Of a stretch of DNA of 64,000 bases, positions 7,462 to 63,368 are shown piece after piece. The notes under the pieces were generated by a model that worked only from the letters and a program-made list of their open reading frames with translations, did not search any database and was not told the origin of the DNA. Numbering within the stretch: position 1 is the stretch's first letter; each line of letters begins with the position of its first letter. Both the position numbers and the translations under genes were made by a program. The stretch is from Octopus vulgaris (taxonomy: Eukaryota): the NCBI GenBank assembly GCA_951406725.2, contig OX597815.1, forward strand, positions 146,382,001-146,446,000, in the 5' to 3' direction.

Positions 7462-7528
<67 letters not shown>

Positions 7529-7544
7529 ACGTTTATCTCACGTT

Positions 7545-8185
7545 AATATCGGTTCCAAATTTTAGCACATGACCAGCAGTTTCGGAGGAAGGTTTTAGTG
7601 GATTATATTGCTCCTGTATTTAACTGGTACTTATTTTATCGACCCCCGCGAAATAATGGAAGGCGATGTAGAGTTTGAACTCGGAATATAAAGAGGGACG
7701 AAATACTGCTACGCATTTTGACCGGCTTGCTAACGATTCTGCCAGTTCACCACCTTATCTGAGGATAATATTGATTTCACGGTTTAGTTTAGCATAATGA
7801 CAGAAGATTTTGGGTGATGGGCGAAGTCGATTAAATCGACCCCAATTTTCTGCTGGTACTTATCGACCAACCTAAAGACGGGCGAAATGCCGCTAAGCAT
7901 TTTACCGAGCTTGCTAACGGTTCTGCCGGCTCGCCACCGTGTCTCACGTTAATACAGGAATTTATTTTAAAGCGGCAAGCTGGCAGAATCGCTAACACAC
8001 CGGGCGGCGAAATGCTTAGTGGCATTTCATCCGTCTTCCTTTTCTAGCTTCAAATTCCGCTGAGGTCGACTTTGCCAAACATCATTTGGAGGTTGATGAA
8101 ATAAGTACCAGTTGAATGCTAGGGACAATGTCATCGACTTAAACGCTTCACCGAAATTTCGCACCTTGGGCCAAAATTTCAAGTA
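7545..8185. mobile_element. Cluster of three degenerate SINE type B copies (-,-,+)
   Basis: ctggtactta..ttatcgacc and tctgcc.gctcgcc motifs on minus at about 7545-7755 and 7815-7938. Plus copy aagcggcaagctggcagaa...ttcaaattccgctgaggtcgactttgcc at about 7970-8185. Confidence 0.8.
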
Positions 8186-18646: not shown

Positions 18647-19005
18647 TGTATACTTAGATATATTTTTATCCAAGATACACTGCTTTAGTATATTGTATTT
18701 TGAGGAGATATTTCAGCAATGAATATATTATATAAGATATCGTAAAATATCAAATATCATTATTAAGTGTGAAAACAGAAAGATATCTAATGAAAAGAAA
18801 TTCATTTATTAATTTACATGTTCACCTAGAATTGTCTCATTTCACAAAAAAAATTAAAACACACAATATATATATAAATTTATAATTACGCAATTTAAAA
18901 TAACTTGGATGGAAACCATCAGGGTGTACAAAAGACAATACACGGTATGATCCTTTGGAGGAAGCAGAATATAAAGTCATGTTTCTTATATATATATATA
19001 TATAT

Positions 19006-19398
19006 ATAGGAAAAAAGCAACAAGAATGGATTAAAATCTCGGTACGATCGTTTCGTACGAGGACATCTTTAATAAGCTACAAAAAATGTAAGATTAGCTG
19101 CAGCTAATCTTACAACCTCTTTTGTATCTACCCCTTTTGATGTTTGGGAAATCTCTGATGTTTTTTCGGCTGACGAGTACGAGCCATCTGTATTCACTGC
19201 ATTTTTTGTAGCTTATTAAAGATGTCCTCGTACGAAACGATCGTACCGAGATTTTAATCCATTCTTGTTGCTTTTTTCCTATTTGTAATCACCCCACTTG
19301 TCGTATGGTTAACACCATATAGATTTCCGGTGCATCCTAGTTAAGGACCATATTTATGTGAATTCTTTAGAATTCACTAGAATCTCAATTACTTAACC

Positions 19399-19400
<2 letters not shown>
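19006..19400 (+). mobile_element. Penelope-like non-autonomous insertion with perfect 83-bp inverted repeat and 3' extension, within (TA)n
   Basis: 19006-19088 is the exact reverse complement of 19200-19282. 28-bp perfect palindrome at 19087-19114. Contains an intact hammerhead; (TA)n on both flanks. Confidence 0.8.
19164..19251 (+). ncRNA. Type I hammerhead ribozyme, intact core
   Basis: Stem I TTTCGG/CCGAGA; CTGACGA (19170-19176); stem II GTACGAG/CTCGTAC extended by CATCT/AGATG; GAAA (19234); palindromic stem III ACGATCGT; GUA triplet, predicted cut after 19245. Confidence 0.88.
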
Positions 19401-19460
<60 letters not shown>

Positions 19461-19478: not shown

Positions 19479-19653
19479 AGAATTCACGAAAAAACCAAAG
19501 ACGAGGACAGGTGGTGAAGAAAACAAACACATGTATTAGTATAACGCTCGAGAATTGAAAAAGTCTTTAACGTTTCGAGCCTACGGTCTTCCACAGAAAG
19601 AAACATAGAAAGAAACTAGGAGAGAAAAATGTGCGTAGTGGCTACCGATCTGT
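19479..19653 (-). mobile_element. Family P1 hammerhead-bearing relic (degenerate core at 19565-19600)
   Basis: Minus strand: cttt-CTGTGGA-AGACC-gtag-GCTC-GAAACGTT-aaag; homologous to 20521-20710. Confidence 0.75.
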
Positions 19654-20146: not shown

Positions 20147-20172
20147 AACTCCTATATATATAGATATATATA

Positions 20173-20467
20173 GGCGGCGAGCTGGCAGAAATATATATAT
20201 ATACAAGGCGGCGAGCTGGCAGAAATATATATATATATACAAGGCGGCGAGCTGGCAGAGACGTTAACACGCCGGGCGAAATGCGTAGCCGTATTTCGTC
20301 TGCCGTTACGTTCCGAGTTCAAATTCCGCCTAGGTCGACTTTGCCTTTCATCCTTTCGGGTCGATAAATTAAGTACCATTTACGCACTGGGGTCGATGTA
20401 ATCGACTTAATCCCTTTGTCTATCCTTGTTTGTCCCCTCTATGTTTAGCTCCTTGTGGGCAATAAAG

Positions 20468-20471
<4 letters not shown>
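20173..20471 (+). mobile_element. SINE type B, full length (20243-20471), preceded by two orphan 5' heads
   Basis: ggcggcgagctggcaga at 20173, 20207 and 20243; B-box gagttcaaattcc; tail gggcaataaagaaat running into (TA)n. Confidence 0.9.
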
Positions 20472-20520
<49 letters not shown>

Positions 20521-20523
<3 letters not shown>

Positions 20524-20710
20524 GGAATTTACAAACGAAAACACAAAAAAACAAAACAAAAGACGAAGACGGGTGTGTAACCAACAAACAGATGTATTAG
20601 TTTAACGCTCGGGTAGCGAGAAAGTCTTTTACGTTTCGAGCGTATGCTCTTCATCAGAAAGGAACACAGAAATAAGCAGAGATAGAAAATTAAAAAAAGG
20701 TTTAGTGGCT
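20521..20710 (-). mobile_element. Family P1 hammerhead-bearing short element in (TA)n
   Basis: Third homologous copy of P1, bounded by (TA)n on both sides. Confidence 0.8.
20626..20661 (-). ncRNA. Minimal type I hammerhead ribozyme, intact core
   Basis: Minus strand: CTTT-CTGATGA-A-GAGC-atac-GCTC-GAAACGTA-AAAG. Stem I CTTT/AAAG, palindromic stem III ACGT, GUA triplet, predicted cut between 20630 and 20629. Confidence 0.85.
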
Positions 20711-23759: not shown

Positions 23760-24168
23760 AATATTAAATAGAAAATGTATACAATAGAAATAACAGAACC
23801 ACAACACCACTTCCATTACTCATGTAATACATGCACGCGATCACACAAACACATACGCGGAAACACTCACACATATACACACACACACATACACTAGAGC
23901 GCGCACTAGAGCGCGCATACATGCACACACACACCTCAGAGCACGCACACATAAGAAAATAGGCACATATCTATTGATACATGCATGTCGCACACATGTA
24001 ATAAAATAATAATGATAATAATTATAATACTGCGAGTATCTTGTAAGTAGAAAATTATTCCGTATGAAAATAAGGAAAACATGTATATGTGTTACTCATT
24101 TCCATATACATGAATTTCTCTCGATCTCAGAGCGAGTGAGATTTACTGTGTATACACAAGCACACACA

Positions 24169-24695
24169 CATAATGTAAATAAACAACAAGGATGTCCAGG
24201 TATTAATACAGTATGGCCGTTTCCAGCAGCGCCATTTAATCGACCAATGAAAACATTAAATCAATTTTAAAGAAAAAGGCTCTCCTCACACGTAGAAGAC
24301 CGTATAGATTTCCAACATAAAAGACAAACAATTTTTAACAAATTTATGTTCCAGACCTTCTAAATATAAATAACTATCTCACCACTCCCATATCATGACC
24401 CACACCACAATTTTGCTCTGCTACTCTCTAAATTATAGTAGGTTTAATAAGATACTTTTTTTTGGTTTCTAAACTCATTCTGCCACAAATATAACACAAG
24501 GAAACAATGTAATTATTTGGTTTCTGGTATTCATATCAATTTGCTTAAAATGGATTATCCTTTACTTTGGAAATCTATATGGCCATCTACGTCTGAGGAG
24601 AGCTGATTCTTTAAAGTTGATCGATTAAATGGAGCTGCTCGAAACGGCCGTAATGTATTGATTCCTAGATATCCTTGTTACTTATTTACATTCTG
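24169..24695. mobile_element. Penelope-like relic with inverted pseudo-LTRs (arms about 24169-24325 and 24555-24695)
   Basis: Arms are diverged reverse complements, each with a hammerhead: right arm intact, left arm degenerate (GTGAGGA...GAAACGGCCATA on minus). Confidence 0.8.
24588..24657 (+). ncRNA. Type I hammerhead ribozyme, intact core
   Basis: Stem I TACGT/ATGTA; CTGAGGA (24593-24599); stem II GAGC/GCTC with long loop; GAAA (24641); palindromic stem III ACGGCCGT; GUA triplet, predicted cut after 24652. Confidence 0.85.
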
Positions 24696-24813
24696 TTCAC
24701 CTAACGTGGAGCTGTGCAGACTATACCGATCTGGCTTAGTGCCAAATTTTAAGTACCTAATTCAACTGGATCTTGATTTTATATATATATAGTCATAATA
24801 CATACACACGTAC

Positions 24814-33943: not shown

Positions 33944-34817
33944 GTCAGCGCATTTGGTATATGTTTTCACAGCAGTATTGCGAAGTTACATTTAAAATAG
34001 TTTGTAACAAGACATTGCTTCGAACAATTTAGCGCTTACTGTCAAAATCTAAGAAGACTTTTGCAGCCTTAAGGCATCTCTAATAATTAAAACTAAATTC
34101 TATTCTTCACGATGGTTAGGTCATCAGAATAGCAGTCGCCTAACAAAAGGTATATTAAAACTGTCAGTCAGCTTTAGGGAGTGAACAAGACATTATCGCA
34201 TTTCCCACAGTCAATGTGGAGGAATGCTCAATGGATAAAATGTAGCGCTATGTACGATGACTTATGAATGAGAAAAAAATTACTTACCTTTGAGACTGAG
34301 TACGAATTAGAGACAACATCTAAAAAAAAAATAGAAACAAAAATATTAGTTGTTATTACGCATATATTATAATTCAGTAGAGTGACGTAAACATTAAAAC
34401 AATTATATCCTATTTTGTTTAACATGAAAATAGACTTTACATAACATCATATTGAGTCCGACAGCTACAGTGATAGTTACAACTACGAATGTTTGCTCGA
34501 GAATTGAATCTGATTATCCCTGTGTTCTGTAAGAAATCGTTAATTATATATTCTACTATATCCTTTAATTCTTTTAATACTCCCGGTATTTCTATGGAGT
34601 TTGACCTCGGGATATGAATTGCTCGTGCATATTAATCAATATCAAATATTTAAATTACAGTTTTTATTAAAAAAATTCAGACCTGAAACGTGGTTTTCAG
34701 TCAAAAGCATTGTAAGGAAACAGTTAAAGAGGCCACATAGTCCTCGGTGAAATACGAACACAGGATTCAAACTATTACGATTGATTCCTGTAAATAAAGT
34801 CAATTTTTTTCATTTGT

Positions 34818-35032
34818 TATTTATTTATTGTCCACAGGGGGCTAAACATAGAAGGGACAAACAAGGACAGACAAAAGGATTAAGTCGATTACAACGACCC
34901 CAGTGCGTGACTGGTACTTAATTTATCGACCCTGAAAGGATGAAAGGCAAATTTTAACTCAAAACATAAAGACAGACGAAATAACGCTAAGCATTTCGCC
35001 CGGCATACTAAAGTTTCTGCCAGCTCGCCGCC
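34818..35032 (-). mobile_element. SINE type B
   Basis: Reverse complement of 20243-20471 with a short deletion next to the B-box. Confidence 0.9.
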
Positions 35033-35486
35033 TTTACACACACATATATTGAACCAGAGTTATCTTGTGACCGAAATTCGCAAGCCGAAGACCATTACAA
35101 TACGATTTTGAGCGTGTATTTACATTCGTTAGTGCGACTGCAATTTCTTGTCTCTGTTCGTTAGTCAACAACTGTTCGCTGCTTGGTTTTTGTGATTCGT
35201 TATTGGTTATTTTTCGAGGGGGTGCTACATTTTTGCTTATTCATTCATTTTGCTTATCTGTTTAAAATTATTTAAAACAATAATTTGTTCAATTTTCTCT
35301 TATGTTTATTTTTTGTTTTAGTAATTTCGTTGCAAATATTAATGTTTTGGCTAAAATTGGGCTTTTTTTGAAAATAATTTTGCTTCAAAATGAATTAAAC
35401 TGTGAAACTGCTTAAGGACATACCAACTGCAAATAATGTTTCAGAACGGCAAGAAATTGAGGTGGCTCTTAGTGATATATCTTAAT

Positions 35487-38136: not shown

Positions 38137-38818
38137 AAATAGGTAATTTCAACAGTCTACGACAACTGTAAGTATGTTGTTAACGCTGCCATTGTATGTA
38201 TGCATGTATGTGCGTGTTTGTTGCCTGTTATGTGTTTACTACGCTTTCACCATTTTGTCTTCAAATTTTGGACTTGAATATAATCGCTTATATATTCATA
38301 ATGAAACGTGTGTGTGCATGCGCGCGCGTATTTGTGTGTGAATGTTGTTTTTTGCTAGAAATTAAATGACATATACTTTCTTTATATTTTATTTCTTCTA
38401 TGTCGTATTTGTGACGAGGTTGTTTTTGTCATTCGTAACAAAGTCATTAGAAACTTAAATATTCATTTCACATGAATTCGCTTATGAATAATTTAATTTC
38501 ATTTCAGTTTTCTAAATTCATAAATGACACGATTAATAAAAGCGATAGCTGAGCTGTCAGTCGCAAACAATTATGACCTGATCACTTGTACAGCGTCTGG
38601 AGTAATTAATTTAGGAGTTCATATATTCGTGCGACAACATTCATTCGGTACACGTGACACAGCTGAACAATTGTCGTGAGAATCGAGGATGCATATTCTG
38701 GAGGAAGAGAGAGCTGTTCCAGTACTAGGCCGGTGCTCATTTTCAGGCGACTAACCTTGAGCATTGCAAAAAATGCGGAACCCGACTCAAGAATCGAACG
38801 AATGACATTATGACCACC

Positions 38819-39038
38819 TATTTCTTTACTACCCACAAGGGGCTAAACACAGAGGGGACAAACAAGGACAGACATAGGTATTAAGTCGATTTTATCGACC
38901 CCAGTGCGTAACTGGTACTTAATTTATCGACCCCGAATGGATGAAAGGCAAAGTCGGTCCCGGCGGAATTTGAACTCGGAACGTAACAACAGACGAAATA
39001 CGGCTACGCATTTCGCCCGGCATGCTAATATTTCTGCC
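38819..39038 (-). mobile_element. SINE type B with 15-bp target-site duplication, nested in an older SINE-like relic
   Basis: Flanks gacattatgaccacc (38804-38818) and gacattaagaccacc (39039-39053). Host has a minus-strand B-box-like gttcgattc. Confidence 0.92.
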
Positions 39039-61565: not shown

Positions 61566-62117
61566 ATAAATAAATAGATTGATTGCTAAATACAGAAATA
61601 GTTAGACTGCCGCATACATTAGCTTCGTTATAAACTTCTCCCCTTATCTGTGTTTTCCCACAGAACCTCCTCTATGCAACATGTGACCGTCGTGGAACCA
61701 ATAAACCATTCCTCTATGATTTGCAACATTTGGTTACCATTTCAATGGAATTTCATTATACTTTTCCCCTAACCCATGTAAATTTAATTTTATAGCATTC
61801 CTTTTCACACTCCTTTCGCTATGATCACTCCTTTCTCTACGTGCTCTGCATATAAATATTTTTAACCCTCTTGTTCTAATCCTCTATGTCTTTCAACACA
61901 ATTCTTCCAATTCCATTTCATTGATTTTACAACTTCATCTCTTGTCTTCTTCCTGTTTTAAGTTGTGTAAAGTCTTTTCCTTATAGACTTTACAACATAC
62001 ATTTATACATTCTTATTTACATTATTTCATAATCATCTGTCCCTTTTTGCCATACGCATTTTATATATTCGTTTTTACTCCAGGCACAAGGCTCGAAATA
62101 TTTGGTAGATGAACCTC

Positions 62118-62857
62118 AATACGCAACTGGAGCTTAATTTATCGACCCCGAAAGGATGAAAGGCAAAGTCGACCTAGACGGAATTTGAACTCATAACCGC
62201 TAAGCATTTCGCCCGGGGTGCTAAAGTTTCTTATTTATTTTCTGCCCACAAGGGGCTACACACAGAGGGGACAAACAAGGAAAGACGCACGGATTAAGTC
62301 GATTATTTTGAATCCAGTGCGTAACTGGTACTTATTTAATCGACCCCGAAAGGATGAAAGGCAAAGTCGGCGGAATTTGAACTCAGAACGTAGCGACAGA
62401 CGAAATACCAATTTCTTAACTACCCACCAGCGGCTAAAGACAGAGGAAACAAACAAGGACAGGCAGACGGATTAAGTCGATTATATCGACCCCAGTGCGT
62501 AACTGGTACTTAATTTATTGACCCTGAAAGGATGAAAGGCAAAGTCGACCTCGGCGGAATTTGAACTCAGAGCGTAATGGCAGACGGAATAAGGCTACGC
62601 ATTTCGCCCGGCGTGCTAATGTTTCTTATTTCTTTATTGCCCACAAGGGGCTAAACACGGAGGGGACAAACAAAGACAGACAAATGGATTAAGTCGATTA
62701 AATCGACCCCAGTGCGTAACTGGTACTTAATTTATCGACCCCGAAAGTATGAAAGGCAAAGTCGATCTCGGCAGAATTTGAACTCAGAACGTGACGGCAG
62801 ACGAAATACGGCTACGCATTTCGCCCGGCGTGCTAATGTTTCTGCCAGCTCGCCGCC
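62118..62857 (-). mobile_element. Head-to-tail array of four SINE type B copies
   Basis: gtaactggtactta...gaaaggcaaagtcg-type block recurs at about 62125, 62320, 62500 and 62717. Only the rightmost copy has the complete ggcggcgagctggc head. Confidence 0.92.
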
Positions 62858-63368
62858 TTTTCTTTTTACATGTTCACGTGCCTTGTACATATATCTCTTA
62901 ACACTTCTGTCCCTTTGCCTACCTGCCTGTTTACATACTCATTTATTTTTACATTCATTTAATTTTTCACTAGTTTTTCCACTGCTCCTCCATCTTGACC
63001 CACATTTTAAGCTTTCTTCCTTTTTTCGTTTTTCTCCACTGTTTTCGCTCAACTTCACTCACTCCCAGCCAACCGTTTACACCTTACACCATTTACATTC
63101 TCCTTTATATGCTAAAACTCACCAGCATTTCCTCTCTGAACTCCTCCCCAAATAACTGAATTCCCACCAGACCCCTAATCACTTTTTCCACTTTTCCTTT
63201 CTTTACCCCACCGTTCATTATTTCCCGCATTTTTCTCATGAGGGTATCAACGTCGAGAAGGTCAAAGTCCGTTTACTTTTTCCATTCAAGCGTGAAAACT
63301 AATATCACTTCTTTGAAAACTTTCTGGTGTTTTGTATTTTCTTTTTGTGTTTTTCCCATTCATATATA

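Follow-up and report, generated by a model that had tools for sequence, protein, structure and literature searches.

The locus at 19006-19400 very probably holds a 5′-truncated insertion, devoid of an open reading frame (ORF), from a hammerhead-bearing family that is likely the pLTR of a Penelope-like element (PLE), and the inverted copy within it is likely a by-product of integration. It lies in a non-coding, microsatellite-rich window of ~33% GC, the window being the whole 64-kb stretch of DNA analysed here. The first-pass annotation had described an 83-bp inverted repeat whose right arm carries the 3′ half of a hammerhead ribozyme while CTGACGA (19170) lies in the loop, and these parts are exactly where it put them: 19006-19088 and 19200-19282 are reverse complements at 83 of 83 positions, with no extension possible at either end. 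That description is nevertheless incomplete, as it overlooked an inverted element copy, a 28-bp palindrome and a stem III of 2 bp. The reverse complement of 19006-19100 equals 19101-19114 plus 19200-19282, with a 2-nt CA overlap and 87 nt missing, and 19006-19100 is thus a head-to-head inverted copy of the element. CTGACGA sits in the "loop" because the 87-nt deletion took it out of the inverted copy; indeed, segment 19115-19199 makes up most of this loop and carries the hammerhead 5′ half. The palindrome (19087-19114) is perfect and centred on TGCA at 19099-19102, the insert overlaps its left flank by TAT/ATA, and the direct copy outruns the inverted one by 118 nt (19283-19400) on one side only. 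The features of the locus, and of a related insertion in the same window, are as follows.

18987-19008, no strand: (TA)11, the part of the target microsatellite that remains on the left; the element end shares its final 3 nt.
19006-19100, minus strand: inverted 5′-truncated copy; its outer end is the family's recurrent terminus, 19282.
19087-19114, no strand: head-to-head junction palindrome, 28 bp; the TGCA centre is present in the parent family sequence.
19101-19400, plus strand: direct 5′-truncated copy (pLTR-like terminal repeat and tail) of a high-copy family, no ORF.
19113-19129 and 19200-19213: two similar motifs at the deletion borders.
19115-19199, plus strand: stretch that the inverted copy lacks (deletion 19113-19199 or 19115-19201).
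19164-19251, plus strand: type I hammerhead, predicted to cleave after 19245.
19283-19400, plus strand: one-sided extension ("tail") of 118 nt, in the direct copy only.
19400-19457, no strand: (TA)29 tract, right target remnant; next to it are (GA)n and a minimal-hammerhead repeat of older date.
24168-24790, no strand: older related insertion of the same layout, its arms 75% identical.
24168-24347: inverted copy of the older insertion, hammerhead core decayed.
Hammerhead at 24593, with a GGCC loop: direct copy of the older insertion, followed by a tail and then (TA)n.

The element belongs to a very high-copy repeat family. A search of public runs listed 24, of which 20 bear the sequence, spread over 11 studies, with no RNA run on record among those 20; contigs from four of the 24 (3 studies, 3 organism labels) were aligned to 18660-19400 at 88% likeness, leaving out the left TA tract. 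Against a unique left flank with a depth of 3.8-42 across the four runs, the summed contig depth over 19110-19284 reached 456 to 13,037 times that of the single-copy flank in all four, a ratio that does not amount to a copy number. From 19099 onward, family contigs agree with the locus, and in every run they carry other sequence upstream (10, 1, 5 and 4 contigs); the copy is therefore 5′-truncated and its TGCA centre native to the parent; the parent's upstream motif has no match in the 64-kb window at up to 3 mismatches. Loose ends in (TA)n recur behind 19282, with at least five contigs in each of runs X2 and X3 (two of the four runs), and 4 of 32 listed contig pieces (of 2487) end at 19282, which identifies the outer end of the inverted repeat as a family terminus. 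Furthermore, at least three other strand-reversing joints are present, namely 19058/19230 (X1, X2), 19045/19230 (X2, X3) and 19084/19210 (X3, X4); the first reads as a perfect palindrome throughout the 28+28 letters tested, and the other two have half-palindromes of 6 bp. The inverted repeat is thus a recurring integration structure of the family, with no design specific to this locus. In run X1, depth falls ~7-fold past 19334, with a weaker drop or none in the remaining runs, and one loose end lies behind 19336, so that a third family end possibly exists ~50 nt past 19282.

The insertion at 24168-24790 repeats the layout in an older form. Both of its arms keep the whole hammerhead region, the core of the inverted arm being changed, and the inverted arm ends 40-44 nt past the cleavage site as against 37 nt at 19006-19400. 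Homology over the whole length of the two copies gave z scores of 0.1, 1.7 and 5.2, significant under one of three scoring schemes. The motif GGAAATCT precedes the core in both copies (19147-19154 region in the younger), and the 14 nt at 19315-19328 are exactly reverse-complementary to 24569-24582 (E 0.25). Folding predicts a long-range helix, but position 19151 deviates from the family majority. The family's hammerhead motif strings are absent from the searched supplements of PMC8557442, PMC4209133 and PMC13282606; these files did not include the O. vulgaris consensus library, and the family may therefore already be catalogued. A metagenome scan with a 22-nt core pattern returned no matches.

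Membership in the PLEs is inferred from structure, since neither the truncated copy nor the 64-kb window contains an ORF for a reverse transcriptase (RT) or a GIY-YIG endonuclease. Pfam, run on 133 selected frames of at least 55 aa (low-complexity frames excluded), gave three weak matches, all below cut-off, and ARAGORN returned none over the window. A 40-codon stop-free frame (19097-19219, plus strand) runs through the hammerhead 5′ half and ends in loop II, probably by chance. The PLE features present are a type I hammerhead in a terminal repeat, 5′ truncation, a head-to-head inverted copy with a junction palindrome, and a microsatellite target, with (TA)11 and (TA)29 as flanks and (TA)n at the ends of other copies. 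PMC8557442, in the relevant part, gives as standard for PLEs an inverted 5′-truncated copy, a tail on one side and a bias towards microsatellites; rotifer Penelopes show palindromes of 18 and 38 bp at inverted junctions as well as microhomology deletions (PMC3846280, in part); and Schistosoma has opposite-strand hammerhead pairs 100-700 bp apart (excerpted from PMC4209133). For O. vulgaris itself, 190 Penelope-like families have been reported, of which 31 are recently active (PMC13282606, excerpt). The insertion is like endonuclease-bearing (EN+) PLEs, that is Penelope/Poseidon, Neptune and Hydra, in its 5′ truncation, inverted copy, junction palindrome, AT-rich/(TA)n target, terminal-repeat hammerhead and microhomology deletion. 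It differs from them in that no ORF is seen and in that its tail, a one-sided extension from a recurrent end, measures 118 nt against a published 30-40 bp. Naiads likewise use a (TA)n target but are without canonical hammerheads.

How the inverted copy arose can be outlined from what is reported of PLE insertion, in which both strands are cut and extended and two RT start sites create the tail (PMC11167929, in part). The element's endonuclease would nick both strands of the (TA)n tract, and each nick would prime reverse transcription at a preferred family end (right nick, 19400; left nick, 19282), so that the 118-nt tail would be the difference between the two priming points. Both cDNAs would stop early and be linked via TGCA (19099-19102), a self-complementary word, which would create the 28-bp palindrome; the left copy would lose 87 nt between similar motifs, by a template jump or a later deletion. 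The outcome would be an 83-bp repeat whose loop holds CTGACGA by chance. To dual priming as the exact route we give roughly an even chance. A possible though more doubtful route keeps the same element and by-product status and departs in a single step: one cDNA would fold back at TGCA and prime itself, outward copying would produce the arm, and microhomology at 19280-19282 would connect it to (TA)n. Self-priming fits the perfect palindrome at the junction and the TAT/ATA overlap at the left, and it is the published reading of such palindromes (PMC3846280, in the section concerned); however, the parent offers at the joint only a 4-nt palindrome with no loop, and 19282 is a family terminus in other copies. 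The deletion also bears on the choice, as the homology at its borders lies on the already-copied side only if the left arm was synthesised antisense, starting at the (TA)n end and running inwards (alignment score 4.5 versus 0), and is on the wrong side for outward copying. Dual priming is therefore favoured over fold-back, unless the deletion came later.

The hammerhead consists of CTGACGA at 19170-19176, GAAA at 19234-19237 and a GTA triplet ending at 19245. Stem I (19164-19169/19246-19251) has 6 bp including one G-U, and stem II is formed by 7 bp (19177-19183/19227-19233) plus 5 bp (19185-19189/19220-19224). Stem III has only 2 bp, closed by a palindromic GATC loop, and lies inside an 8-nt palindrome at 19237-19244. 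Using our own descriptor (type I, palindromic 15.2-16.2), we found three sites in the 64-kb window, whereas 200 dinucleotide shuffles averaged 0.005 and none of them held a site as strong as 19164-19251; the match is due to more than chance. Rfam gave no match at the gathering score across the 64-kb window, and 14 weak matches within 18900-19450, none of them to a hammerhead family, so that the ribozyme call rests on the descriptor. Stem II had been singled out earlier as longer than in the other copies, and so it is, with 7 bp against 4 bp in the other two descriptor matches. In all four runs, paired changes at 19239/19242 turn loop 3 into AATT at near-equal depth, and the loop is palindromic throughout (GATC in the 19-kb copy, AATT in the family, GGCC at 24593); judging from these sequences, the loop-3 palindrome covaries within the family. 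In both copies an ATG stands four codons before GAAA and in the same frame, with a stop 10-11 codons on (19222-19257 and 24629-24661). The ORF of anole Poseidon is reported to start within its hammerhead, 26 nt before the cut (PMC11167929, in part), as compared with 24 nt from ATG to cut in the 19-kb copy; the in-hammerhead ATG frames may be chance or vestige.

Folding predictions suggest that this ribozyme cleaves mainly in pairs, as a dimer-type hammerhead. In the segment 19115-19300 the active monomer is predicted to lie ~6 kcal/mol above the ensemble, with pairing probabilities of 0.07-0.08 for stem I and 0.002 for stem III. In contrast, for two copies of 19160-19256 folded without constraint the double hammerhead is the minimum-energy fold, at −60.4 kcal/mol versus −54.4 (2 × −27.2) for two monomers in their best, inactive fold. 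These models are without tertiary contacts or Mg2+ and were run without an active control; since, in addition, a 2-bp helix III gave 22% monomer cleavage in an axolotl retrozyme (PMC7229834, excerpt), some monomer cleavage is possible. For a single minimal PLE hammerhead, no cleavage is reported in the part of PMC4209133 concerned, and the anole Poseidon hammerhead depended on a protein of the element and was not needed for insertion in vitro (PMC11167929, in its relevant passages). The ribozyme would then be carried along by the family as a passenger; its cleavage is predicted for tandem transcripts, in the form of a double hammerhead, or when a protein assists. Silence is its most likely state at this solitary locus, as the models have it duplex-blocked in read-through RNA and poorly folded alone.

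With the PLE minimal hammerheads of Cervera and De la Pena (2014; PMC4209133, in part) the site shares a U-rich 5′ flank, CUGANGA, an AU-rich 3′ flank, a long helix II with G10.1-C11.1, the GAAA-palindrome-UH arrangement and the dimer-type design. It departs from their strict minimal form in that the extra nucleotide that their consensus has between A9 and G10.1 is missing, G19177 following directly on A19176 and pairing with C19233, and it further differs in its 2-bp helix III with a tetraloop and in the 43 nt enclosed by the 7-bp stem II. Alternatively, the family could be a non-autonomous non-LTR retrozyme, made of tandem hammerhead repeats that spread via circular RNA, and the locus a solo monomer inserted in trans by PLE enzymes. 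The very high depth, the 300 nt seen without an ORF and the predicted dimer-type ribozyme would suit this, and retrozymes are reported as pLTR derivatives that occur as monomers (bioRxiv 10.64898/2026.07.22.740005, in part). The locus indeed resembles metazoan non-LTR retrozymes (PMC7229834; bioRxiv 10.64898/2026.07.22.740005; both in excerpt) in being non-coding and high-copy, with a type I hammerhead and a weak helix III. It is unlikely to be one, however, as it is non-tandem, the 64-kb window has no second direct copy, and stem II (7+5 bp) contrasts with the canonical 4-bp helix II (PMC4209133, in the part cited); it also bears the inverted copy and tail of PLEs. A MITE or other DNA transposon with terminal inverted repeats was rejected, because the right arm stops 118 nt short of the right end and the family has copies that lack the left arm.

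The exact arms had also been read as the mark of a young, recent event, which holds loosely. The arms by themselves give only a bound, 0 differences over 95 paired positions corresponding to a divergence of at most ~3.1% (95% bound), and of ~300 positions in the copy two, 19151 and 19355, deviate from the family majority. On an octopus calibration in which a distance of 0.09 equals 25 million years (PMC13282606, as excerpted), the insertion would be under about 5 million years old, if the arms were not homogenised. An arm produced by the assembly, or by fold-back in the library, is very improbable. Long inverted repeats are recognised assembly hazards (PMC8557442, in part), and none of the 32 listed contig pieces (of 2487) bridges the centre junction of the locus; against this, the arm stops at a true family terminus, has an internal deletion and rejoins unique flank colinearly, and two studies have comparable joints in their short-read contigs (19058/19230, depth 39.6 and 64). 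A weak hint in the same direction comes from a flank contig (X3, record 18) with 39 extra letters, equal to a reach of 8 nt into the element. The unique left flank itself (18728-18977) shows no difference between organism labels A and B and a single mismatch over 229 positions for C, which makes the three labels very close relatives.

The first-pass annotation had proposed a built-in on/off switch, in which a plus-strand transcript including the left arm locks the ribozyme in a duplex and one starting inside the loop cleaves itself. The "off" half is borne out in prediction, the duplex of the long construct (19006-19300) being computed to exclude the active fold by ~60 kcal/mol. A fate of this duplex as Dicer substrate is plausible as well: siRNAs from inverted Penelope regions are reported in Drosophila (PMC3681739, excerpt), from rearranged copies which resemble this one in that read-through RNA would form double-stranded RNA (dsRNA), although the arms here differ in being only 83 bp. 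Read-through RNA of any kind would, as dsRNA, be open to silencing or editing. The "on" half finds no such backing, since the transcript 19115-19300 is the very segment predicted to misfold. Besides an active monomer, a switch would require a transcription start within the loop and a target to regulate. The locus is probably not an on/off switch, because its layout is a known insertion by-product and its ribozyme is predicted to cut mainly in pairs. That the host exploits two transcription starts, with a long RNA locking the ribozyme and a short RNA cleaving itself, is exceedingly improbable: core and stems are intact and promoter-like motifs can occur in pLTRs (PMC3846280, in part), but the copy is truncated at 19099 with only tail and microsatellites downstream, 0 of the 133 frames of the window has a Pfam-supported gene, and the inverted layout recurs across the family. 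Equally improbable is an accidental conditional ribozyme, created by the insertion and the 87-nt deletion, in which read-through RNA is held in an 83-bp duplex open to ADAR or Dicer, loop-started RNA self-cleaves, and host or family makes use of it; such an RNA might cleave by itself, as a dimer formed in trans or aided by the protein of the element. Our literature search, judged by titles or the start of abstracts, found no description of an antisense-controlled PLE hammerhead, and a working switch, if true, would be a new route from retroelement debris to regulatory RNA.

Read as the usual trace that integration leaves in a high-copy family, here a probably Penelope-like one whose hammerhead is of the dimer type, the single locus matters little, as one of very many copies in which every feature has already been described for PLEs. 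The family, on the other hand, offers two sharp ends 118 nt apart, palindromes on 4-nt self-complementary words and a covarying loop 3, and a genome-wide tally of these could therefore help to decide between dual priming and self-priming, a choice left open in the relevant parts of PMC3846280 and PMC11167929.

Other repeats surround the insertion. A second, older minimal-hammerhead family (GAAACGTH, no helix III loop) is represented on the minus strand at 19481-19628 and 20462-20689, with related cores at 1791 (minus), 40014 (plus) and 47635 (plus); its core is intact at 20657 and decayed elsewhere. As the right (TA)n tract ends the copy at 19481-19628, the insertion landed in the microsatellite end of this older element. 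Some repeats of the window presumably resemble octopus SINEs. A SINE-like dispersed repeat of ~230 bp occurs at 20241-20472, 7477-7756, 7969-8148, 34813-35035 and 38816-39038, as well as in a tandem run at 62113-62860, and its first 18-20 nt stand three times, with TA spacers between them, at 20172-20259.
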